Below, piece by piece: positions 2,234-34,461 of a DNA stretch of 64,000 nt. Positions within the stretch are counted from its first letter, which is position 1. Each line of letters starts with the position of its first letter. Source of the DNA: an uncultured Rhodospirillaceae bacterium (GTDB lineage Bacteria; Pseudomonadota; Alphaproteobacteria; Rhodospirillales; Defluviicoccaceae); NCBI GenBank assembly GCA_964460955.1, contig CAYWRP010000002.1:12654-76653 (forward strand). The letters are read 5' to 3'. Made by a program: the position numbers and the translations under genes. The notes beneath the pieces were generated by a model. It saw only the letters and a program-made list of their open reading frames with translations. It had not been told where the DNA came from and ran no database searches.

Positions 2234-4972
2234 TCATGGCGCGCTCCTCGCCGAGCTTGCCCCGTCGATCGCCAGCCGCCGCATCTTTTTTTCGAAACCG
2301 ATGACGATGTAGATAACAAGGCCAACCAACATGATGGATGCCCAGTCGGCAAGGCCGATGGGGGCGGTGTGGAACAGGAGGTTCATCGTCGGCAGATAGG
2401 TGAACAGCAACTGGGCGACGACCATGGCGCCGATGCCGCCCCACACCCACAGGTTGCTGAACAGCCCCAACTGGAACATCGACAGTCTCAGCGAACGGCA
2501 GTTCAACAGGTAAAACGCCTGGCCGACGGCGAAAACATTGACGGCGATCGTTCGCGCCTCGGCGTCGGTGGCATCGTTGTATAGCGCCAATTCGAACAGG
2601 CCGAAGGAGCCTGCCAGGAGCATGAGCCCGACAAGCAGGACGCGGAAACCCAACTCGCTGGAAAGGATGGGAGCGCCCGGATCGCGAGGCGGGCGCTCCA
2701 TGATGCCAATCTCGCGCGGCTCGAAGGCCAATGGGAGACCAAGAAACACGGCGGTGGTCATGTTGATCCACAGGGCCTGGACGGGCAACACGGGGAGTGT
2801 CGCGCCGACGAACACGGCGGCCAGAATCACCAAGCCTTGCCCGGCGTTGGTCGGCAGGATCCAGGTGATGAACTTGATCAGATTATCAAACACGCTGCGG
2901 CCTTCCTCGACCGCGGCCTCGATGGTGGCGAAGTTATCGTCGGTCAGCACCATGCCGGCGGCCTCCTTGGCCACATCGGTGCCGGTAATGCCCATGGCGA
3001 CGCCGATGTCGGCCCGTCGCAGGGCCGGTGCGTCGTTGACGCCGTCGCCTGTCATCGCCACGACGTGACCGCGCGCCTGAAGTGCCTCCACCAACCGGAG
3101 CTTCTGCTCGGGTGTCACCCGCGCGAACACGGCCGTATCTTCCACAAAAGCGGTCAATTCCGCGTCCGACATCGCCTCGATGTCTCTGCCCGTGATGGCG
3201 GCTGCTGGTCGGCCTCCGGGACCGCCGGCGTCCAAACCGATCTGGCCGGCGATGGCTGCGGCCGTGCCAGCGTGATCGCCGGTGATCATCTTCACTCGGA
3301 TGCCGGCGTCATGGCACGCGCGCACCGCGCGCACCGCCTCCTCGCGGGGCGGATCGATCATTCCTTGCAGACCGAGAAAGGTTAGCCCCGAAAGCACACT
3401 CTCATGATCGATCGACGTTGCGCCCGCCGACAACTCTCGGCGGGCGAATGCCAGCACGCGCAACCCCTGAGCCGCCATTTGGTCGACCTGCCGGTGGATG
3501 GCGTCGACATCCAGATCCATCCTTTCCCCAGTCGCTCTCAGAACGCGATTGGAACGCTGCAGGAGGCTTTCCACCGATCCCTTCAGATAGGCGACACGGG
3601 GCTGATCTGGTCCGGCGTCATGCAGTATCGCCATATACTGGTGCCGCGACTCGAACGGAATCGCGTCCAGACGGAGCTGCTCCCTGTGTAACGTCTCTGG
3701 CGAAAGACCAGCCTTGGATGCCGATACGACCAGGGCGCCTTCGGTGGGGTCGCCCTCGATCCGCCAGCCTTCCTCCCCGTGCCTCAGCGAGGAATCGTTA
3801 CAGAGCAGGCCCGCGTGCAGACATTCGAGCAATGCCGGGTTGGCCTGAGGGTCGATGACGCTATCGGATCGCCGGAATTCGCCCTCGGGCGCATAGCCAA
3901 TGCCGGAGACAGTGAACAAGCCGTCGCCCGCCCAAATCTCCTGCACGGTCATTTCGTTGCGGGTGAGGGTGCCAGTCTTGTCGGAGCAGATCACCGTGGT
4001 GCTGCCCAGGGTCTCCACCGCCGGCAGCTTGCGGATAATGGCATGACGCTTTGCCATCCTGGTGACGCCGATGGCCAGGGTGATCGTCAGCACCGCCGGC
4101 AGACCCTCCGGGATCATCGCCACTGCCAAGGCGACCGCGGCCATGAAGGTGCCAACCCAGGGATCACCGTGCCACAGCCCGACCAGAAAGGTGATGGCGG
4201 CCAGACCCAGGATGGCATAAAGCAGGATACGGCTGAACCGAGCAACCTTGCGGGTCAGAGGGGTGGCCAGCACTTCCGCCGTTGCGATCATCTCCGAGAT
4301 CCGGCCGATTTCAGTGCCGTCGCCGGTTGCCGCTACAACGCCCAAACCGGTCCCGTAGGTGATCAAGGTAGACGAGTATGTCATGTTCACCCGGTCGGCC
4401 AACGGGGTGTCGTGTTCCAGAGTGCCGGTGCGCTTATGGACCGGCACCGACTCGCCGGTGAGCGCGGATTCGTCGACCTGGAGTTCGCGGGTACGAAGCA
4501 GCCTAAGATCGGCCGGCACCTTGTCTCCGGATTGCAGCAGCACGAGGTCGCCGGGCACCAACTCGCTCGAATCGACACGCCGGCGCTCGCCCGCCCGCAG
4601 CACGGTGGCCTCGGTCTTCATCGCCTTCGCTAGCGCCTCAATGGCGCTCAGCGCCTTGCTTTCCTGGAGGAAGCCGATAATGGAATTGAGCACGACCACG
4701 CCGAGGATAACCCCGGAATCAACCCATTCACCCAGGAACGCGGTAATCAGCGTCGCCGCGAGCAGGATGTAGACCAGCGCCTGGTGGAACTGGAGCAAGA
4801 AGCGGACCACCGGCCCGTGCCCTTTGCGCATGGTGAGGGCATTGGGTCCGAACTGTTCCTGGCGGCGTTCCACCTCGAAGCTGTCCAGTCCCTTGTCGGG
4901 ATTGGTGTCGAGAAGATCGAGGATCTCTTCAGCCGGCAAATGGTGACAGTGTTTGTCCAGGATGGTTTGCAT
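2234..4972 (-). CDS. P2-type cation-transporting P-type ATPase (CtpF/PMA1-like)
   Basis: DESALTGES, IPEGLP, phosphorylation motif ICSDKTGTLT, KGSVE, MITGDH, MTGDGVNDAPAL; 912 aa. Confidence 0.95.
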   Translation of the reverse strand: MQTILDKHCHHLPAEEILDLLDTNPDKGLDSFEVERRQEQFGPNALTMRKGHGPVVRFLLQFHQALVYILLAATLITAFLGEWVDSGVILGVVVLNSIIGFLQESKALSAIEALAKAMKTEATVLRAGERRRVDSSELVPGDLVLLQSGDKVPADLRLLRTRELQVDESALTGESVPVHKRTGTLEHDTPLADRVNMTYSSTLITYGTGLGVVAATGDGTEIGRISEMIATAEVLATPLTRKVARFSRILLYAILGLAAITFLVGLWHGDPWVGTFMAAVALAVAMIPEGLPAVLTITLAIGVTRMAKRHAIIRKLPAVETLGSTTVICSDKTGTLTRNEMTVQEIWAGDGLFTVSGIGYAPEGEFRRSDSVIDPQANPALLECLHAGLLCNDSSLRHGEEGWRIEGDPTEGALVVSASKAGLSPETLHREQLRLDAIPFESRHQYMAILHDAGPDQPRVAYLKGSVESLLQRSNRVLRATGERMDLDVDAIHRQVDQMAAQGLRVLAFARRELSAGATSIDHESVLSGLTFLGLQGMIDPPREEAVRAVRACHDAGIRVKMITGDHAGTAAAIAGQIGLDAGGPGGRPAAAITGRDIEAMSDAELTAFVEDTAVFARVTPEQKLRLVEALQARGHVVAMTGDGVNDAPALRRADIGVAMGITGTDVAKEAAGMVLTDDNFATIEAAVEEGRSVFDNLIKFITWILPTNAGQGLVILAAVFVGATLPVLPVQALWINMTTAVFLGLPLAFEPREIGIMERPPRDPGAPILSSELGFRVLLVGLMLLAGSFGLFELALYNDATDAEARTIAVNVFAVGQAFYLLNCRSLRLSMFQLGLFSNLWVWGGIGAMVVAQLLFTYLPTMNLLFHTAPIGLADWASIMLVGLVIYIVIGFEKKMRRLAIDGASSARSAP

Positions 4973-7993: not shown

Positions 7994-8884
7994 ATGGCGT
8001 TCGATATCCGGTCCGCGATGGCGGGAAACGCCCGCGACGTCGATGGCATGCTCGATGCCCTGCTGCCGATGCGGCCCGATCCGGAGGCGCGACTCATGGA
8101 AGCCATCCGATACGCCACCTTGTCCGGCGGCAAACGGGTGCGGCCGTTTCTCGTCGTCTGCAGCGCCGATTTGTTCGGGGTAAAAAAGGAGCGCGCGCTG
8201 CGGGTCGCCGCCTCCATCGAGATGATCCACTGCTATTCGCTGATTCACGACGATCTGCCGGCGATGGACAATGACGAGGTGCGCCGCGGCCTGCCGACCT
8301 GCCACGTCAAGTTCGACGAGGCGACGGCGATCCTTGCCGGCGACGCCCTGCTGACGCGCGCTTTCGAGGTCCTTGCCGAGGATGCGACGCACCCCGACCC
8401 GCGGGTGCGCAGCGACCTCGTCGTCTCCGTTGCCAGGGCGGCGGGCGGTAATGGCATGGTGGGCGGCCAGATGCTCGACCTGATGGCGGAAACGGAAGCC
8501 CTGGAAATGGCGGCGGTGACCCGGCTGCAGCGGATGAAGACCGGCGCGCTGATCGCCACGTCGTGCGAGGCGGGGGCGATCCTCGGAAAGGCGAGCGAAC
8601 AGGCCCGCCACGCGCTGCTCGCCTATGCCCATGACCTCGGGCTTGCATTCCAGATCGTCGACGACCTCCTCGACGCGGAGGGCGACGCGGCGGTCGTCGG
8701 CAAGAAAACGGGTAAGGATAGCGGTGCTGGCAAGGCGACCTTCGTTTCGCTGATGGGCCTGGATCGCGCCCGCCACCAGTCACGCATTTTGGCCCAACAG
8801 GCGGTCGACCACCTGGACATATTCAACACCGCCGCCGACGCGCTGCGCGCCCTAGCATGGTTTGTGGTCGACAGAGAGCATTGA
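7994..8884 (+). CDS. ispA: Farnesyl diphosphate synthase / geranyltranstransferase
   Basis: GGKRVRP, SLIHDDLPAMDNDEVRRGLPT, KTGAL and FQIVDDLLD aspartate-rich motifs; start trimmed to ATG 7994. Confidence 0.95.
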   Translation: MAFDIRSAMAGNARDVDGMLDALLPMRPDPEARLMEAIRYATLSGGKRVRPFLVVCSADLFGVKKERALRVAASIEMIHCYSLIHDDLPAMDNDEVRRGLPTCHVKFDEATAILAGDALLTRAFEVLAEDATHPDPRVRSDLVVSVARAAGGNGMVGGQMLDLMAETEALEMAAVTRLQRMKTGALIATSCEAGAILGKASEQARHALLAYAHDLGLAFQIVDDLLDAEGDAAVVGKKTGKDSGAGKATFVSLMGLDRARHQSRILAQQAVDHLDIFNTAADALRALAWFVVDREH

Positions 8885-11682: not shown

Positions 11683-12753
11683 TCAGCCGCACTGCGCCTT
11701 GTGGCGCAGCAGGTGGTCGGCGAGGGCGATCGCCGCCATCGCCTCGGCGACCGGCACGCCGCGGATGGCGACACAGGGGTCGTGGCGGCCCTTGGTGGCG
11801 ATCTCGGTCTCGGCGCCGCCCTTGGTGACGGTCGGTTGCGGCGATAGGATGGAACTGGTCGGCTTGATGGCGAGGCGGACGACGATGTCCTGGCCGGTCG
11901 CGATGCCGCCAAGGACGCCGCCGGCGTGGTTGGACAGAAAGACCGGCCGGCCGTCTTGCATGCGCATGGCGTCGTTGTTTTCCGGGCCGGTGCGGGCGGC
12001 GGCGGCGAACCCGGCGCCGATCTCGACCCCCTTGACCGCCGGGATCGACATCATCGCCTTGGCGAGATCGGCATCGAGGCGGTCGAACACCGGCTCGCCG
12101 AGACCGGCCGTAACACCGGAGGCGACGACATGGACAATCCCGCCGGCGGAGGATCCGGCCTTGCGGATCCCGTCGAGGTAGGCCTCCCAGGCCGCCGCCG
12201 CCTCGGCGTCCGGACACCAGAACGGGTTGCGGTCGACCTCGGCCCAGTCCCAGCGCGTCGGATCAATGGCGTGCGGGCCCATCTGCACCAGCGCGCCGCG
12301 AATGGCGACGCCGTCGCCCAGCACCTTGCGGGCGATGGCGCCGGCGGCGACACGCACCGCCGTCTCCCGGGCGCTCGACCGCCCGCCGCCGCGATAGTCG
12401 CGCAGCCCGTACTTCCGGTCGTAGGTGAAATCGGCGTGGCCCGGGCGGTAGGTCTCCATGATCGCCGAGTAATCCTTCGAGCGCGCATCGGCGTTTTCGA
12501 TCAGCAGGCCGATCGGCGCCCCCGTCGTCACCCCCTCGAAGACGCCGGAAAGAATCCGCACCTGGTCGGGCTCTCGGCGCTGGGTGGTGTGGCGGCTCTG
12601 GCCCGGCCGCCGGCGATCGAGATGGACCTGGATGTCGGCCTCGCTCAAGGCAAGGCGCGGCGGCACACCGTCGACGATGCCGCCGATCGCCGGGCCGTGG
12701 CTCTCGCCGAAGGTGGTGAGGCGGAACAGGGAGCCGAAACTGTTTCCGGGCAT
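11683..12753 (-). CDS. aroC: Chorismate synthase
   Basis: [42 protein letters not shown]. Confidence 0.97.
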
Positions 12754-28451: not shown

Positions 28452-29237
28452 TCACGCCTCGTTTCCTGCGGGACCTTCGTCCGCGACATGCAGTTCGACA
28501 TCCGCATCGGCGACTATCTGCGCCATCCCGGGCGGCGGCGGTCGGTCCGTGAACAAGGCATGGATATCGTTCAGATGGCATACCGTGGCGAGGGCGCGGC
28601 GGCCGAATTTCGAATGGTCGGCGGCGAGACAGACGTAGCGCGACTGCTCGACAATGGCGCGCGAGACGCCAACCTCCGGCAGGTCGAAATCCCGCAAGGT
28701 GCCGTCGGCGTCGATCCCGGAAATGCCGATGACACCGAAATCCACCTTGAACTGGCGCACGCATTCCGTCGCCATTTCCCCGGTGATCCCGAGATCGCGG
28801 GCACGCACGTTGCCGCCGGTGACGATGATTTCGCAGTCGCCATTGCGCCCCAGGATCGTTGCCACGTTCAGGTTGTTGGTGATCACCCGCAGTCCGCGGT
28901 GGTGGACGAGTTGGCGGGCGATTTCCTCATTGGTGGTGCCGATGTTGATGAACAGGGAGGCCTCGTCGGGAATGTGCCGGGCGACCAGCGTGGCAATGCG
29001 TTTCTTTTCCTCCGGGCGCAGCACTTGACGGGTCGCGTAGTCGATGTTCACGGCGCTCGACGGCCATCCTGCGCCGCCATGGTAGCGCCGCAGCAGACCC
29101 TGCTCGCAGAGCTGATTAATGTCGCGGCGGATGGTTTGCTGGGTGACGTCGAATCGTTCGGCCAGATTCTCGATCTCGACAAACCCCATATGACGGGCCA
29201 ATTCGAGGATTTGCGCCTGTCGCGGGTTCAGATTCAT
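28452..29237 (-). CDS. glpR: DeoR/GlpR-family transcriptional repressor
   Basis: RQAQILE, FDVTQQTIRRD, RRYHGGA, FINIGTT, ITNNL, DFGVIGISGIDADG, ADHSKFGR. Confidence 0.9.
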   Translation of the reverse strand: MNLNPRQAQILELARHMGFVEIENLAERFDVTQQTIRRDINQLCEQGLLRRYHGGAGWPSSAVNIDYATRQVLRPEEKKRIATLVARHIPDEASLFINIGTTNEEIARQLVHHRGLRVITNNLNVATILGRNGDCEIIVTGGNVRARDLGITGEMATECVRQFKVDFGVIGISGIDADGTLRDFDLPEVGVSRAIVEQSRYVCLAADHSKFGRRALATVCHLNDIHALFTDRPPPPGMAQIVADADVELHVADEGPAGNEA

Positions 29238-29490: not shown

Positions 29491-29521
29491 CGTCGCTTCG
29501 CATGTATGCTGTCGCGGTTGC

Positions 29522-29611
29522 GGATGGGTGGCCGAGTGGCTGAAGGCGCTCCCCTGCTAAGGGAGTATAGGTTAATCCCTATCGAGGGTTCGAATCCCTC
29601 CCCATCCGCCA
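29522..29611 (+). tRNA. tRNA-Ser(GCT)
   Basis: Acceptor GGATGGG/CCCATCC, discriminator G, encoded CCA; anticodon stem CTCCC/GGGAG with loop CT-GCT-AA; long variable arm ATAGG/CCTAT; T-arm GAGGG-TTCGAAT-CCCTC. Confidence 0.98.
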
Positions 29612-29629
29612 CCTACGTCGCAGGTCGGG

Positions 29630-29654
29630 CACAGAGTGATCGATCTACTCTGTG
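29630..29654. terminator. Hairpin between tRNA-Ser and the convergent ABC operon
   Basis: CACAGAGT (29630-29637) / ACTCTGTG (29647-29654), followed by a short T-rich run. Confidence 0.5.
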
Positions 29655-29694
29655 GGCGGGTTGTTTGTGGCGTTGCGCGGAGTCACGAGGGGCG

Positions 29695-30429
29695 TCAGGT
29701 ACTCTGGCGCGACGCTCGGCCGGGCCCGTCTTCGCCGTCCAGGCGCCCGTCTCGCAGCCGGAAGATTCGGTCGAACCGGTCGAAGATCTTGTCATCGTGG
29801 GTGACAGCGATGATCGCGGTCTCCTGCTCGGCGGCAAGTTTGCGGAGCAGGTCCATGACGATCCCGGCACGTTCGGAATCTAGCGCGGCGGTCGGCTCGT
29901 CCGCCAGAATGATTTTGGGTCTGTTTGCGAGCGCCCGAGCGATCGCGACCCGCTGTGCCTCTCCGCCCGAAAGTTGAGAGGGCATCGCGTGCTTCCGATG
30001 GCCGATCTGCAAGTAATCGAGAAGTTCCTCCGAACGCTTGATACCCTGCTCGCGTGACAGGCCGGCAAGTTGCAGGACGACGGCGACATTGTCGGTGGCG
30101 GTGAGAAAGGCCAGCAGATTGTGCGTCTGGAAAATGAAGCCGATCTTGTCTAGGCGTAGACGGCGCAGGTCGCGCCTCAGCCAGTGGTCGTCGTAGACCA
30201 CCTCGCCGTCGATACTCATCCATCCCTCGTTCGGCTCGAGGATTGCCCCGATGACGTTGAGCAGCGTGGTCTTGCCGGAGCCCGAGGGTCCAAGGAGGCC
30301 CACCACCTCGCCCCGCGCCACGTGCAATGAGACGTCGCGAAGTGCATCGACGCGCATCTCGTCCTCGCCGAAATGCTTGCTGATCCCGCTCAGTTCGACC
30401 AGCGGGTGACGTTCGAGGGTTTGCGCCAT
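29695..30429 (-). CDS. ABC exporter ATP-binding subunit (MacB/LolD-like)
   Basis: GPSGSGKTT, GFIFQ, LSGGEAQRVAIARAL, ILADEPTAALD, VTHD. Confidence 0.95.
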   Translation of the reverse strand: MAQTLERHPLVELSGISKHFGEDEMRVDALRDVSLHVARGEVVGLLGPSGSGKTTLLNVIGAILEPNEGWMSIDGEVVYDDHWLRRDLRRLRLDKIGFIFQTHNLLAFLTATDNVAVVLQLAGLSREQGIKRSEELLDYLQIGHRKHAMPSQLSGGEAQRVAIARALANRPKIILADEPTAALDSERAGIVMDLLRKLAAEQETAIIAVTHDDKIFDRFDRIFRLRDGRLDGEDGPGRASRQST

Positions 30430-30433
30430 GCCG

Positions 30434-31573
30434 TTATCCGGTCAACGCCTGGGACGGGTCAATGCGCAATGCCGCGCGCACGCCAAGCAGGCTCGCCAGC
30501 AGGCAAACCAGCACCACGACACCGAATAGCATCGCGATGTCGCCGCGCGCCATCACGATGCCACGGGGGAAATAGCCTTTCAACGCATAGACCAGAGCGG
30601 CACCGACAATAAATCCGGTGACACCCATCAGCAAAGCCTGTTGCAGGATGAGGCCGACAATGGTGCGGTCTGGCGCGCCTATCAACTTGAGTGTCGCGAT
30701 CTCCCTGACCTTTTCCATTGTGAAAGTATAGATGATGAGGGCAATGATCACCGCCGAGACGACGGTGAGCACGCTCATGAAAAGACCGAGTTGGCGGCGC
30801 GCCCGCTTGATGACGGTGAGCGACAGTAATCGCGACTGTTGCTCGTCCGTCAGCACCGAAAGATGCTTCCAGCGGCGGATGGTGTCGGCCACCTCGGCGG
30901 CCGAGAAATTCGGTCGGATACGGGCCACCACGGCGTTAACGAGATTGGTCGGCGTGCGCTGCAGTCCGCGCGCCGCTTCCCTGCGCGCGACCGGCGGCGC
31001 CAACTCGAACTGCAGGTCTTGTGCGTCTTGCAGTGACATAAAGACGATCGAATCCCCCGAGCGATTGACGACGCCGGATGTCATGCCGACGACGGTGTAC
31101 TCGCGGCTTTGTTGGCCGAGACGCAGTGTGTCACCGACCTCAAGGCCGGTCGCGCGGTCGGCGACCAACTCATAGTGATCGCGGGTGATCGGGCGACCTT
31201 CAACGATATGCCGGGGGCCGCCTGGGTATCCGGGCTCATAACCCACGATCAATAGCTGTAACTTGCGCGCGCCATGTTGCAACTGCATGTTCTGCAAGGT
31301 GATGGCACCGGCCTCGGTGACGCCATTGATGCGCGCCACCATCTCTCGCGTGTCGGCAGGGATGCGCGAGGATTCCGCGAAAGGGCCGTTGGTCCCGGTT
31401 TCGACGACCCAAAGATCCGCTCCAATAGCTTCGCTGAGCGCCAGCGATTCGGCGATTTGTCCGCGATAAATGCCGGCCATCGTGATCACCACGGCGAGCA
31501 GCAGGCTCAGGCCGAGACAGGTCATCAGGAAGCGTCCCAGCTTGTGCCGGACATCGCGCCAGGCAAGGTTCAT
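30434..31573 (-). CDS. ABC exporter permease (FtsX/MacB family)
   Basis: MNLAWRDV N-terminal TM, periplasmic domain, C-terminal REIATLKLIGA with 3 TMs. Confidence 0.92.
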   Translation of the reverse strand: MNLAWRDVRHKLGRFLMTCLGLSLLLAVVITMAGIYRGQIAESLALSEAIGADLWVVETGTNGPFAESSRIPADTREMVARINGVTEAGAITLQNMQLQHGARKLQLLIVGYEPGYPGGPRHIVEGRPITRDHYELVADRATGLEVGDTLRLGQQSREYTVVGMTSGVVNRSGDSIVFMSLQDAQDLQFELAPPVARREAARGLQRTPTNLVNAVVARIRPNFSAAEVADTIRRWKHLSVLTDEQQSRLLSLTVIKRARRQLGLFMSVLTVVSAVIIALIIYTFTMEKVREIATLKLIGAPDRTIVGLILQQALLMGVTGFIVGAALVYALKGYFPRGIVMARGDIAMLFGVVVLVCLLASLLGVRAALRIDPSQALTG

Positions 31574-32742
31574 TCCGACTCCTTCCCGGCCGCGATGACG
31601 GCCCGATCTCCCTCCTCAAGTCCCGTCGTGGGGCTTTTGACGACCTTCGCGCCTTCGGGCACGCCGCCGACGATCTCGACCCAGCCGTCGAGCGTGCGGT
31701 GCCCAATGGTTATTCTGCGCTGTTTCAGACGGCCATCCTCGACCGTCCAGGCCGTCGCTTTCTTCGGCGTAATGTCGCTCAGGGCGTTCATCGGGACGAG
31801 ACGAGCGTTCGGTAGCGTCGCGACGGTGATCAGCACTTCGGCCTGCTCGCCAAGATGAAATGCCAGCGGGCAGCCGCCGCACCGGACATAGACCCTGTAT
31901 TCCTCGTTGACGCGATCGCTTTCGATCTCGATGCGCACGACCGTCGCTGGAATGTGCAGCTCCGGCGCCGAGCGGCGGGTAACCTCCGCCGACTGGCCGA
32001 CCTCGATCGCGCCTGCCCGCGCTTCGTCGATATAGGTGAGCGCCCAGATCGTTTCGGGATCGACCACGGTGAAGACCGGTTCATTTGCGGCAAGGGCCGA
32101 GCCGAGGTCGCTGTGCAGCTTGATCACGAGGCCTTCATAGGGGGCATATAGGCTGTGTTTTTCGAGCCCGGCCTCCTCTAGAGCCAGCGCCGCCCGTGCT
32201 TGCCGGAGATTGGCCTTCGCCATGTTCACGCTGCTGCGGGCCTGGGCGAGCTCCGCTCTGGCGATCTCGAACGCTGCCTGGGCTTCGTCGGCCAACTGTT
32301 GCGAGGTCGTCCCGCGCCGCAAGAGATCCTGCTGGCGTTCGTTGGTCAGTGACTTCTCTTTCAGTACGGCCCCCGCGCGCTCGGCATTCGCCGTTGCCTG
32401 CTCGACGCCAGCCGCAGCCTGAGTGACGGCGGCCTGGGCCTGGGAAACACGCGCCTCCTGCTCCCGGCTATCAAGCCGGGCGAGCAATTCGCCTTTTTTC
32501 ACGCTGTCGCCATGGTCGGCGTGCAGCTTGACGAGGGTTCCCGCGCTTTCGAAACCGATGTCCGATCGGACCTGTGCTTCGACCGTTCCGAGGCCAAAAA
32601 CCTGGATCGGCACGTCGCGTTCAATCCTCGCGACCTGTACCGTTACGGGCTTCAGGAGCCATAACCACGCGCCAGCCGCGACGCTCGCTGCGACGAGGAG
32701 AAAGACCGTTAATCGCAGCCGGGCCCTTGGTGTCACTCGCAC
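31570..32742 (-). CDS. Membrane fusion protein of the ABC exporter
   Basis: TM anchor, VFGLGTVEA, ADHGDSVKKGELLARL, LYAPYEGLV; ATGA-type overlap with the permease start. Confidence 0.92.
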   Translation of the reverse strand: MRVTPRARLRLTVFLLVAASVAAGAWLWLLKPVTVQVARIERDVPIQVFGLGTVEAQVRSDIGFESAGTLVKLHADHGDSVKKGELLARLDSREQEARVSQAQAAVTQAAAGVEQATANAERAGAVLKEKSLTNERQQDLLRRGTTSQQLADEAQAAFEIARAELAQARSSVNMAKANLRQARAALALEEAGLEKHSLYAPYEGLVIKLHSDLGSALAANEPVFTVVDPETIWALTYIDEARAGAIEVGQSAEVTRRSAPELHIPATVVRIEIESDRVNEEYRVYVRCGGCPLAFHLGEQAEVLITVATLPNARLVPMNALSDITPKKATAWTVEDGRLKQRRITIGHRTLDGWVEIVGGVPEGAKVVKSPTTGLEEGDRAVIAAGKESE

Positions 32743-32795
32743 GCGCGCTCAGCCTCGGCAAAATACGTTCACGAAGGATATTGTCCGCCGCCTCG

Positions 32796-32809
32796 GTGAC
32801 CTTAGTCAA
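32796..32809 (-). promoter_or_regulatory. CRP/FNR-family-like box upstream of the islet ABC operon
   Basis: Minus strand TTGAC-TAAG-GTCAC, one mismatch to TTGAC-N4-GTCAA, centred about 60 bp upstream of the MFP start. Confidence 0.4.
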
Positions 32810-32860
32810 AGCGAGAGTAGGGGAATGTTGAAAAAAACCATAAATACCTGACCACAGCCG

Positions 32861-32874
32861 CTCCCCATCCGCCA
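32861..32874 (+). repeat. att-like copy of the tRNA-Ser 3' end
   Basis: CTCCCCATCCGCCA, identical to 29598-29611. Confidence 0.85.
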
Positions 32875-33046
32875 TCAGGCGCAGGTTCGCGACAGGTCGT
32901 CGGGCTTCGTCAACCTCGCCATCGCTGGTCCGCGCCGTGTTTTCCCGACGCGTCGTGCCGGCTCTCCGTATGAAGGACACCCCGGGTGGGAAGGCGCAGC
33001 CCACGCGGGGTAACAACCGCGCGTGGCCCAGGCGGCGTATATTTCC

Positions 33047-33803
33047 TCAGTCCGTTGCTTTCCTGGCGATGTAGTAACCGTAGCCGTAGTAGTGCTTGTA
33101 CTGCTCGTACAGGGAAATCTCGCGCTTTTCGGCCTCAAACGATTGCTCGCGACGCGTCGGCGTTTCCATGCGCGTCCAGAAATCCGGCGAACCGCCGCTC
33201 CAGGGGGCGGTAGTAATTTTCAAGCCAGCACTGCTCCGGCAGGACAAAGTATGCCAGGGGCGAGAACCCATGGTTTTCGAGGGTCGCCATCTTCGCCGAT
33301 GCCGTATCGATCCCGCTGTATTCTTGCGCCCAGTGGTCCTGCAATTTCGTGGGCCGTTCCCGCGTCAGCCAGGTGATCTCGGATACGGCGAGGATGCCGC
33401 CCCGCTTGAGGTGTTTCCGCCACGCCGCGACGCCGTTTTCGAACCCGATATTGTAGATCGCGCCTTCGGACCAGATGGCGTCGAGTTCCGCGTCAGCGAA
33501 TGGCAGCGCGTCCATCGATGTTGCGAGCGTCTTGATCCGGTCCGCGATGCCGGCGCGCGCGGCGTCGGCTTCGAGCGTGGCGAGGAATTCCGGGATGAAA
33601 TCCACGGCCGTGATGTGCGCGTCGAGGTGCCGCGCCAGAACGAGCGTGGAAGCGCCGGTGCCGCAACCGATGTCGGCGATTCTGAGATTCTTGGCCGCCG
33701 AAAGACCCGACAGCGTGATCGACATCCGGGTTTCCGCCTCGCCACCGGGACCCTGGCGGGCCGCGTCCTTATGCAGATCGACGAGCAGCCGAAGGTCGTC
33801 CAT
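33047..33803 (-). pseudogene. Class I SAM-dependent methyltransferase with a +1 frameshift near its 3' end
   Basis: IADIGCGTG and IWSEGAIY motifs. Frame stops at ATC GTT TGA (33135); removing one T gives IVEAEKREISLYEQYKHYYGYGYYIARKATD* ending at 33047, the expected family tail. May be a sequencing error. Confidence 0.8.
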
Positions 33804-33984: not shown

Positions 33985-34461
33985 TTACGACTGCTTCATC
34001 TTGAGAGCCGCCGCCTTGATCTCGTCGAGGCTTTCGGTGATGCGGTTCTTCATCGTGTCGGTAACTTCTTCATTCGCCTTGGTGACCATTTCGGCCAGTT
34101 CGCGCATGTTGGACAGCGCTTTTTCGACGGCGGTCTTGGCGAGGTCGGCCTGCTTCGCGGCGACCTGCGGCGGCGACGGCTCTTTCATCATCTCGTCCAT
34201 CGCGGCGCGGGTCTCGTTCATCGTCTCCTGGAAGATTTCCGCCTGGCGCTTGGCGACGGCCTGCATGCCTTCGTAGGCAACCCGATTGGCCGCGGTCAGG
34301 GCTTCCAGATTCTTTTTCTGGCCGGCGACGATGGCGTCCATGTCGACACCCGGCATGTTCAAATTCTTCATGCTTTTCGAGAACTCATCGACCATCTTGG
34401 TCGGATCGAAGTCCTTCATGTATTTGGTAATATCGAAGAAGTTTTCGGGAAGGTTGGCCAT
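33985..34461 (-). CDS. phaP: Phasin (PHA granule-associated protein)
   Basis: DMDAIVAGQKKNLEALTAAN...EGMQAVAKRQAEIF...KALSNMRELAEM; strong RBS GAGGAG before ATG 34461. Confidence 0.9.
   Translation of the reverse strand: MANLPENFFDITKYMKDFDPTKMVDEFSKSMKNLNMPGVDMDAIVAGQKKNLEALTAANRVAYEGMQAVAKRQAEIFQETMNETRAAMDEMMKEPSPPQVAAKQADLAKTAVEKALSNMRELAEMVTKANEEVTDTMKNRITESLDEIKAAALKMKQS

Follow-up and report, generated by a model that had tools for sequence, protein, structure and literature searches.

A 3.3-kb islet with an ABC exporter operon at the 3′ end of tRNA-Ser(GCT) in a Defluviicoccus genome: probable site-specific insertion without a recombinase of its own

Introduction

How does a complete efflux-pump operon come to lie between the 3′ end of a transfer RNA gene and a second copy of that same end, when nothing between the two copies encodes an enzyme that could have placed it there? 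The question is raised by a stretch of 64,000 nt (hereafter the window) from the genome of an uncultured alphaproteobacterium of the genus Defluviicoccus (GCA_964460955.1; 3.23 Mb in 145 contigs, 98% complete). An earlier note on this DNA had described an integrase-less islet at tRNA-Ser(GCT), bounded by an exact recurrence of the last 14 nt of the tRNA and carrying an ABC exporter. Our analysis suggests that the segment from 29612 to 32874 is probably a discrete, horizontally acquired insert that entered the 3′ end of tRNA-Ser(GCT) by site-specific recombination. The evidence comes from the repeat itself, from the absence of the operon in nearly all relatives, and from a sister islet at a different tRNA-Ser gene, where the repeat matches the other tRNA and so supports the reading of an integrase-less islet.

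Results

The target of the proposed integration is the intact tRNA-Ser(GCT) gene at 29522-29611 (+), which was found with ARAGORN and is the sole tRNA of the window. Its upstream region is native, as indicated by a motif, ttgtagaagcg, that is common to same-family relatives. The last 14 nt of the gene, CCA included, make up the left direct repeat (CTCCCCATCCGCCA, 29598-29611, +), the putative core of the left attachment (att) site, attL; exactly the same 14 nt stand again at 32861-32874 (+), where they would be a displaced tRNA 3′-end fragment and the core of attR. When extended, the pair matches at 15 of 16 positions. How readily would such a pair arise by chance? In dinucleotide-preserving shuffles 0.04 matches to CTCCCCATCCGCCA are expected, even with one mismatch permitted. 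In the whole assembly the 14-mer occurs twice, both times in this pair, in direct orientation and 3.3 kb apart, and tRNA-Ser(GCT) is the only one of the genome's 40 tRNAs with a 3′-end repeat of at least 12 nt within 30 kb downstream. We found no additional degenerate copies of the tRNA end within the window.

The left non-coding end of the islet (29612-29694, +) holds a copy of the motif CGCAGGT and a hairpin. The motif follows both repeat copies, at 29619-29625 (7 nt after the left copy) and at 32880-32886 (5 nt after the right one), and between the copies lie three real genes only, all on the minus strand and all with pump domains only: those for an ABC ATPase, a permease and a membrane-fusion protein (MFP), together with an upstream region of their own. 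In all of this, including gene content, for which we used open reading frame (ORF) and domain analysis, the earlier note proved accurate. The hairpin to which it also drew attention, 29630-29637 pairing with 29647-29654, is likewise real but not statistically remarkable: against shuffled sequence its folding shows no gain on the plus strand (z = -0.6) and a modest one on the minus strand (z = -2.0).

The closest relative of the islet's MFP in a collection of 5.8 billion proteins, at 81% identity, is encoded on a 6.5-kb contig (L171) of the metagenome-assembled genome (MAG) GCA_964561005.1, here called G401. This contig aligns to window positions 29518-32819 at 82.8% nucleotide identity, through the tRNA, the left spacer (which is conserved in part), the three genes and the upstream region, and the homology ends about 40 nt short of the window's right repeat. 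The serine tRNA there is tRNA-Ser(GGA) and not tRNA-Ser(GCT); as in the window, it and the ATPase gene converge. About 50 nt past the end of the homology stands GGTTCCCGATCCCTCTCCCTCCGCCA, which copies the 3′ end of that contig's own tRNA, GGTTCGAATCCCTCCCCCTCCGCCA, at 22 of 26 positions, the last 10 exactly. The repeat thus co-varies with the tRNA, because the L171 copy has ...CCCTCCGCCA where the window has ...CCCATCCGCCA. Past the repeat, L171 encodes a Rieske oxygenase and a LysR regulator, and nothing corresponding to these flanks lies near the islet of the window or near tRNA-Ser(GGA) of the window's own genome.

The two genomes are only distantly related. Their pump proteins are 82-88% identical, far more than housekeeping proteins such as XerD (61%) and XerC (54%); even within the genus, XerD is just 64-66% identical. 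The two tRNAs show a single difference in their 3′ 25 nt, and for this reason one recombinase could use both. Since the same minimal unit abuts a tRNA-Ser 3′ end and a repeat at different tRNAs in different genomes, we favor site-specific insertion of the pump unit, which, to judge from these sequences, would have gone into the conserved 3′ segment of tRNA-Ser on at least two occasions, carrying no recombinase of its own.

Is the operon otherwise at home in the genus? It is absent from 17 of 18 other Defluviicoccus genomes, and the best MFP matches elsewhere in the order are about 50% identical. No relative carries the ABC genes at tRNA-Ser(GCT), which was one of the two observations that the earlier note said would refute it; the sole holder, a Defluviicoccus sp. 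MAG (G009), has the operon elsewhere. In the relatives the sequences downstream of tRNA-Ser(GCT) are all different, with the tRNA 3′ end conserved, and in a comparison of synteny around this tRNA across 16 same-genus genomes none of its neighbor genes from the window was found within 10 kb. Conserved synteny with the genus restarts only at a phasin gene, at 33985. As for the copy in G009, it is not at this tRNA (locus L079, 5547-8541, 76% nucleotide identity), appears frameshifted in both the MFP and the ATPase gene, and sits between insertion sequence (IS) elements (DDE_Tnp_1_4, IS1595) and ZIP transporter genes.

Which enzyme could have made the insertion? The tyrosine recombinase domain PF00589 was not found in the islet, and the only two instances in the genome are XerD and XerC, on other contigs; the former scores above the TIGR02225 cut-off, and for the latter XerC is the best model, with a score just below its cut-off. 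For both proteins the integron-integrase models fall far below their cut-offs, and the repeats are tRNA 3′ ends and not attC sites; with neither an IntI nor attC sites, we rejected the idea of an integron gene cassette. The genome of the sister islet, G401, has two further integrases, which adjoin tRNA-Val and tRNA-Arg.

Contig C138 of the window's own assembly (2079 bp) encodes the genome's one large serine recombinase, complete at 441 residues (Resolvase, Recombinase and Zn ribbon domains), 85% identical to one in Defluviicoccus vanus (G012). It belongs to a very abundant and highly conserved family, with thousands of proteins of which the closest are about 80% identical. A decayed fragment of a homologue, at 80% nucleotide identity, lies inside a tRNA-Ser islet of genome G028, described below. 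On two long contigs, in D. vanus and in a Rhodospirillales MAG, recombinases of this type form a module with DUF2924 and a small ORF in primase-bearing elements, with no tRNA nearby. We considered this enzyme as a helper, and since it shows no link to tRNA-Ser it remains a weak lead only.

Are there other islets of this build? When 401 genomes of the order, among them that of the window, were scanned for the tRNA-Ser 3′ end, three more small repeat pairs came up with both copies on one strand, spanning 1.9-2.6 kb and none with an integrase. Genome G149 has two of them: one at tRNA-Ser(TGA) (L249, 4131-6848; 2.6 kb), which carries a methyltransferase and a metallo-beta-lactamase-fold protein, and one at tRNA-Ser(GCT) (L250, 3542-5509; 1.9 kb), which carries two unknown ORFs. 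The third, at tRNA-Ser(TGA) of G028, a genome of the window's family, is 2.4 kb long (L251) and carries a short-chain dehydrogenase/reductase, a TetR regulator and a remnant, about 70 residues long, of a large serine recombinase; the G028 genome, like that of the window, has two PF00589 hits only. The repeats of these three islets are 16-17 nt long and end at CCA in every case; two pairs are exact, and the remaining one has a single mismatch.

The two islets of G149 have only their ends in common, and the cargo between is unrelated, as in a cassette-like architecture. At the left end, a 91-nt match at 97% identity takes in the 57 nt that follow the tRNA; at the right end, about 97 nt ahead of the repeat match at 81%. 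No third copy of these ends was found in the G149 genome, and only the two islets match. This is a noteworthy local family of islets, with conserved ends and variable cargo. Larger tRNA-Ser(TGA) islands also exist in the order (L252, and L253-L256 of genome G264). Their repeats are about 60 nt long and comprise the whole 3′ half of the tRNA, and in G264 a tyrosine integrase of 341 residues is encoded beside the tRNA; these islands are a different crossover class.

The cargo itself is compact. From the left, the genes encode an ABC ATPase of 244 residues (29695-30429, -; PF00005), a MacB-type permease of 379 residues with MacB_PCD (PF12704) and FtsX (PF02687) domains (30434-31573, -), and the MFP, or periplasmic adaptor, of 390 residues with HlyD_3 (PF13437) and HlyD_D23 (PF16576) domains (31570-32742, -). 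The permease start and the MFP stop overlap by 4 nt, and a gap of 4 nt separates permease and ATPase genes. The MFP scores above the TIGR01730 cut-off; the NCBIfam models nearest to the ATPase are DevA, LolD and MacB, all under their cut-offs; and the sequence matches of the pump in the PDB are 7w78 and the MacB structure 5nik. One operon thus combines a permease with MacB core and FtsX domains, an ABC ATPase and an MFP adaptor, the make-up of a MacB-type tripartite exporter. We looked at the islet's genes for an outer-membrane channel of the TolC kind and found none among them.

The cassette's own upstream region (32743-32860, -) is conserved with L171 nearly up to the repeat. It holds an A-rich right-end box and, inside the islet 5′ of the MFP gene, a promoter-like site: a -35 element TTGACT that starts at 32809 and, 18 nt further on, a -10 element GACAAT that ends at 32780. 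The pump would then be a self-promoted three-gene MacB-type tripartite ABC exporter, which would require an outer-membrane channel of the host. Relative to L171, dN/dS is 0.10-0.26 for the three pump genes, all three of which are intact, and because of this we take the cargo to be functional and under purifying selection. We also noticed an FNR/Crp-type box, TTGA-N6-TCA, upstream of the MFP gene (32780-32809, -). It is present in two other copies of the cassette as well (L213 and L214) and is perfect, TTGATCTCTATCAA, in L213. Genes for regulators with a cyclic-nucleotide (cNMP)-binding domain recur beside the cassette in other genomes; the islet of the window has none.

The operon is widely exchanged. 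Together with about 110 nt of upstream sequence it is found at 73-81% nucleotide identity in many unrelated places, among them Dichotomicrobium MAGs, the gammaproteobacterium Halomonas sp. A3H3 and metagenome contigs, and at 65-69% on alphaproteobacterial plasmids. Among viral contigs we found no relatives of the permease. Recurrent neighbors in these places are Crp-type regulators, PadR, chromate and MOT1-type transporters, cation diffusion facilitators (CDF), ZIP transporters, P-type ATPases and ars genes. These neighbors hint at a tie between the pump and metal or oxyanion stress, a link that we put forward tentatively, as a possibility, since such company proves nothing.

Of 16 contexts of the cassette that we examined, 4 have it between direct repeats, the two tRNA-Ser islets among them; the control in inverted orientation never exceeds 12 nt. 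In a third (L177) the cassette stands between two direct copies, 348 nt long and 88% identical, of a thiolase gene's 3′ terminus (8197-8570 and 11705-12057); the contig has two copies of this repeat, a thiolase paralog at 79% lies on another contig, and a gene for a tyrosine integrase stands 1.2 kb outside the repeat. We tried a model of accretion for this locus and rejected it, since the thiolase repeat does not occur a third time, either on the far side of that integrase or elsewhere in the genome. In the fourth (L214), beside an IS5-type transposase, repeats of about 45 nt, 15 of them exact, lie at 560-610 and 4215-4265 and consist of a hairpin and ...CCCCCGCAACCA; their end, which we take to resemble the 3′ end of an initiator tRNA, is ambiguous. 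Two distant homologues of the operon lie beside tRNA-Thr and tRNA-Lys (L081 and L082), an adjacency that we regard as coincidence because no repeats are found there.

Two genes adjoin the tRNA and islet in the window. To the left of the tRNA lies a gene for a DeoR regulator (28452-29237, -), which is accessory. At the DNA level nothing in the genus matches it, other genera of the family have matches at about 70% nucleotide identity, and contig C81 of the window's genome encodes a paralogue. In metagenomes none of the regulator's relatives is closer than 65% and none lies next to tRNA-Ser; an exact look-up gave nothing. Just outside the right repeat is a frameshifted gene for a class I methyltransferase dependent on S-adenosylmethionine (33047-33803, -), which is accessory in the genus, with a best family match of 35-39%. 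The reading frame ends at 33135 with ...SRAIV, and about 29 final codons (EAEKREISLYEQYKHYYGYGYYIARKATD) follow in a different frame, as far as 33047. Nearly all of the homologues listed are about 251 residues long, and we therefore take it to be a pseudogene or the result of an assembly error in a T run. Its nearest relative, at 86%, lies in another context. A functional tie between this gene and the cassette was considered and rejected: the methyltransferases beside the cassette in L205 and L173 are unrelated to that of the window.

Discussion

How might the insert have arrived? The crossover made by a site-specific recombinase would have fallen in the final 14-17 nt of the tRNA (3′ strand of the T-stem, acceptor stem and CCA). 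On the left it would have rebuilt the tRNA, and on the right it would have stranded the 3′ fragment that the insert displaced. On such a model the empty site would read tRNA-Ser(GCT) and then directly TCAGGCGCAGGTTCGCG, and for L171 it would read tRNA-Ser(GGA) and then CCAACTCCATG. The enzyme would come from another element, acting in trans or, once the two had accreted in tandem, in cis. We infer the recombinase mechanism, the att-site function of the repeats and the mobilization in trans or in cis alike. Because the insert encodes no recombinase and no transfer function, it would be an element of the type of a cis-mobilizable element (CIME), with two att sites only, and since no helper enzyme is visible in this assembly the islet is probably fixed for now.

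Several observations weigh against site-specific insertion and deserve to be set out together. The exact repeat is just 14 nt long. No empty site was found, the nearest relatives of either flank gene being too distant or in other contexts. Nor did we find an integrase-bearing relative with the same ends in the window's own genome, in G401, in G149, in G028, or near tRNA-Ser(GCT) in the relatives. The composition of the islet is not atypical, with a GC content of 62.7% (genome 64.7%) that falls at the 23rd percentile of segments of equal length, and GC at third codon positions is similar to that of the neighboring genes, so that the comparison of GC and codon profile proposed by the earlier note gave no foreign signal. 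The dS between the islet and L171 is 0.4-0.6, and therefore the two copies, and the insertion events behind them, are not recent. Finally, there is the bracketing of the cassette by long thiolase-end repeats in L177, which looks closer to homologous (Campbell-type) recombination than to recombination at att sites and keeps a route free of recombinases open.

Could the pump simply be what remains of something larger? Each tRNA-Ser might have received a larger, integrase-bearing island of its own, with decay on the spot leaving the same pump operon behind both times, so that the 3.3-kb unit as such never moved. CIMEs as a rule originate by decay (PMC5704250); a remnant of a large serine recombinase persists in the islet of G028; and the dS values imply that window islet and sister islet are both old. 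Against this, the decay would need to have happened twice over, at different tRNAs, and each time to have stopped at the same minimal unit, with left and right non-coding ends that are homologous and adjoin the repeat; moreover, five out of five small tRNA-Ser islets have been seen without a working recombinase. We consider this history unlikely. A different thought starts from the L177 bracket and the 45-nt repeats of L214: no dedicated integrase would be needed at all if the cassette looped out as a circle between its repeats and re-entered by homologous or short-homology recombination at whatever conserved segment it carried, here the tRNA-Ser 3′ end. That direct repeats bracket the cassette in a quarter of the contexts, with an inverted control of at most 12 nt, and that the GCT and GGA ends differ only once in their last 25 nt, would both fit. 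On the other hand 14-26 nt is very short for recombination of the RecA type, repeats of 14-17 nt that end exactly at CCA in five islets suit a fixed crossover site better, and L177 itself has its tyrosine integrase gene nearby. Taken together these points make re-entry of this kind quite improbable for the tRNA-Ser islets.

It is also conceivable that nothing was ever inserted, the 14-nt repeat being a chance match and the operon ordinary chromosomal DNA. An unremarkable composition and a short repeat are what one would then see. With the 14-mer restricted to two directly oriented sites 3.3 kb apart in 3.2 Mb, one tRNA in 40 showing such a repeat, a repeat at the sister locus that co-varies with its tRNA, and the operon missing from all but one of the other genomes of the genus, we find this scarcely credible, and the earlier note's concern that the 14-mer might be common away from tRNA-Ser falls away. 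Site-specific insertion of a pump unit is thus the reading that we retain.

Would the same logic extend beyond the pump? One may imagine that tRNA-Ser of any isoacceptor serves, in Defluviicoccus and related Alphaproteobacteria, as a shared dock for recombinase-less cassettes of 2-3 kb, each holding one or two operons between copies of the tRNA's terminal 14-17 nt, that are inserted and exchanged by a recombinase encoded elsewhere, much as in integrons or pseudo-SCC elements (SCC, staphylococcal cassette chromosome). Three things point this way: the same pump cassette stands at tRNA-Ser(GCT) and at tRNA-Ser(GGA) in two genomes, the two cassettes of G149 are alike in their ends alone, and two of the four host assemblies (those of the window and of G028) have no tyrosine recombinase beyond a pair like XerC and XerD. 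We regard the proposal as rather doubtful at present. If it were true, it would point to an unrecognized trans-acting recombinase system in Alphaproteobacteria.

More generally, the two physically delimited copies indicate that a complete efflux-pump operon has moved between distant bacteria as a 3-kb unit, consisting of the cargo and two tRNA-derived junctions. Units of this sort slip past island finders that are keyed to an integrase or to unusual composition. Metals and toxicants are common stresses in wastewater plants, the setting in which Defluviicoccus lives as a glycogen-accumulating organism.

How does the islet compare with known systems? The pump resembles the type VII exporters MacAB-TolC, DevBCA and LolCDE in having a permease with MacB core and FtsX domains, a partner ATPase and an adaptor of the HlyD type. 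It differs from them in that all equivalog models score below their cut-offs and the unit contains no outer-membrane gene; moreover, MacB of E. coli is a fusion of ATPase and permease, whereas here the two are separate polypeptides.

As an insert, the islet invites comparison with the pseudo-SCC elements at rlmH (orfX) in staphylococci. These cassettes lack a recombinase and sit at the 3′ end of a conserved gene, in their case one for a protein, between direct repeats of about 15 bp; they are moved by the large serine recombinases CcrAB and CcrC, which are encoded elsewhere. The islet is like them in lacking a recombinase and in the length and position of its repeats. Its target, however, is a tRNA, and the serine recombinase of C138 is unlinked to tRNA-Ser. 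With classical tRNA islands and prophages it shares a tRNA regenerated at one end, a 3′-end repeat at the other and a patchy accessory cargo. It departs from that class on both of its defining points, since it has no integrase and its composition is not atypical, and it is also only 3.3 kb long with a single operon. Islands of the type seen in G264 and L252 duplicate about 60 nt, the 3′ half of the tRNA, whereas the islet duplicates 14-17 nt only.

The closest likeness is to the CIMEs related to ICESt1 and ICESt3 of Streptococcus thermophilus (PMC5704250, PMC6323972), which lie between attL and attR at a target gene's 3′ end, carry cargo only and are expected to rely on a helper integrase. The earlier note had thought a clean att-bounded unit with a single operon unusual, a judgment that does not survive: three more such units lie at tRNA-Ser in the same order, and the type is in the literature as the CIME (PMC5704250). 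CIMEs are known mainly from Firmicutes, with a cognate integrative and conjugative element (ICE); the islet is in an alphaproteobacterium, and we found for it no cognate ICE, integrative and mobilizable element or integrase. It differs from them, too, in that the same unit stands at two tRNA-Ser isoacceptors, and a mobility like theirs is something we infer for it only. Nonetheless, with what would be att sites bounding it at the 3′ end of a gene and with no genes for integrase, excisionase or conjugation, the islet appears to be a CIME-type, att-bounded element, and as such one of a known kind.

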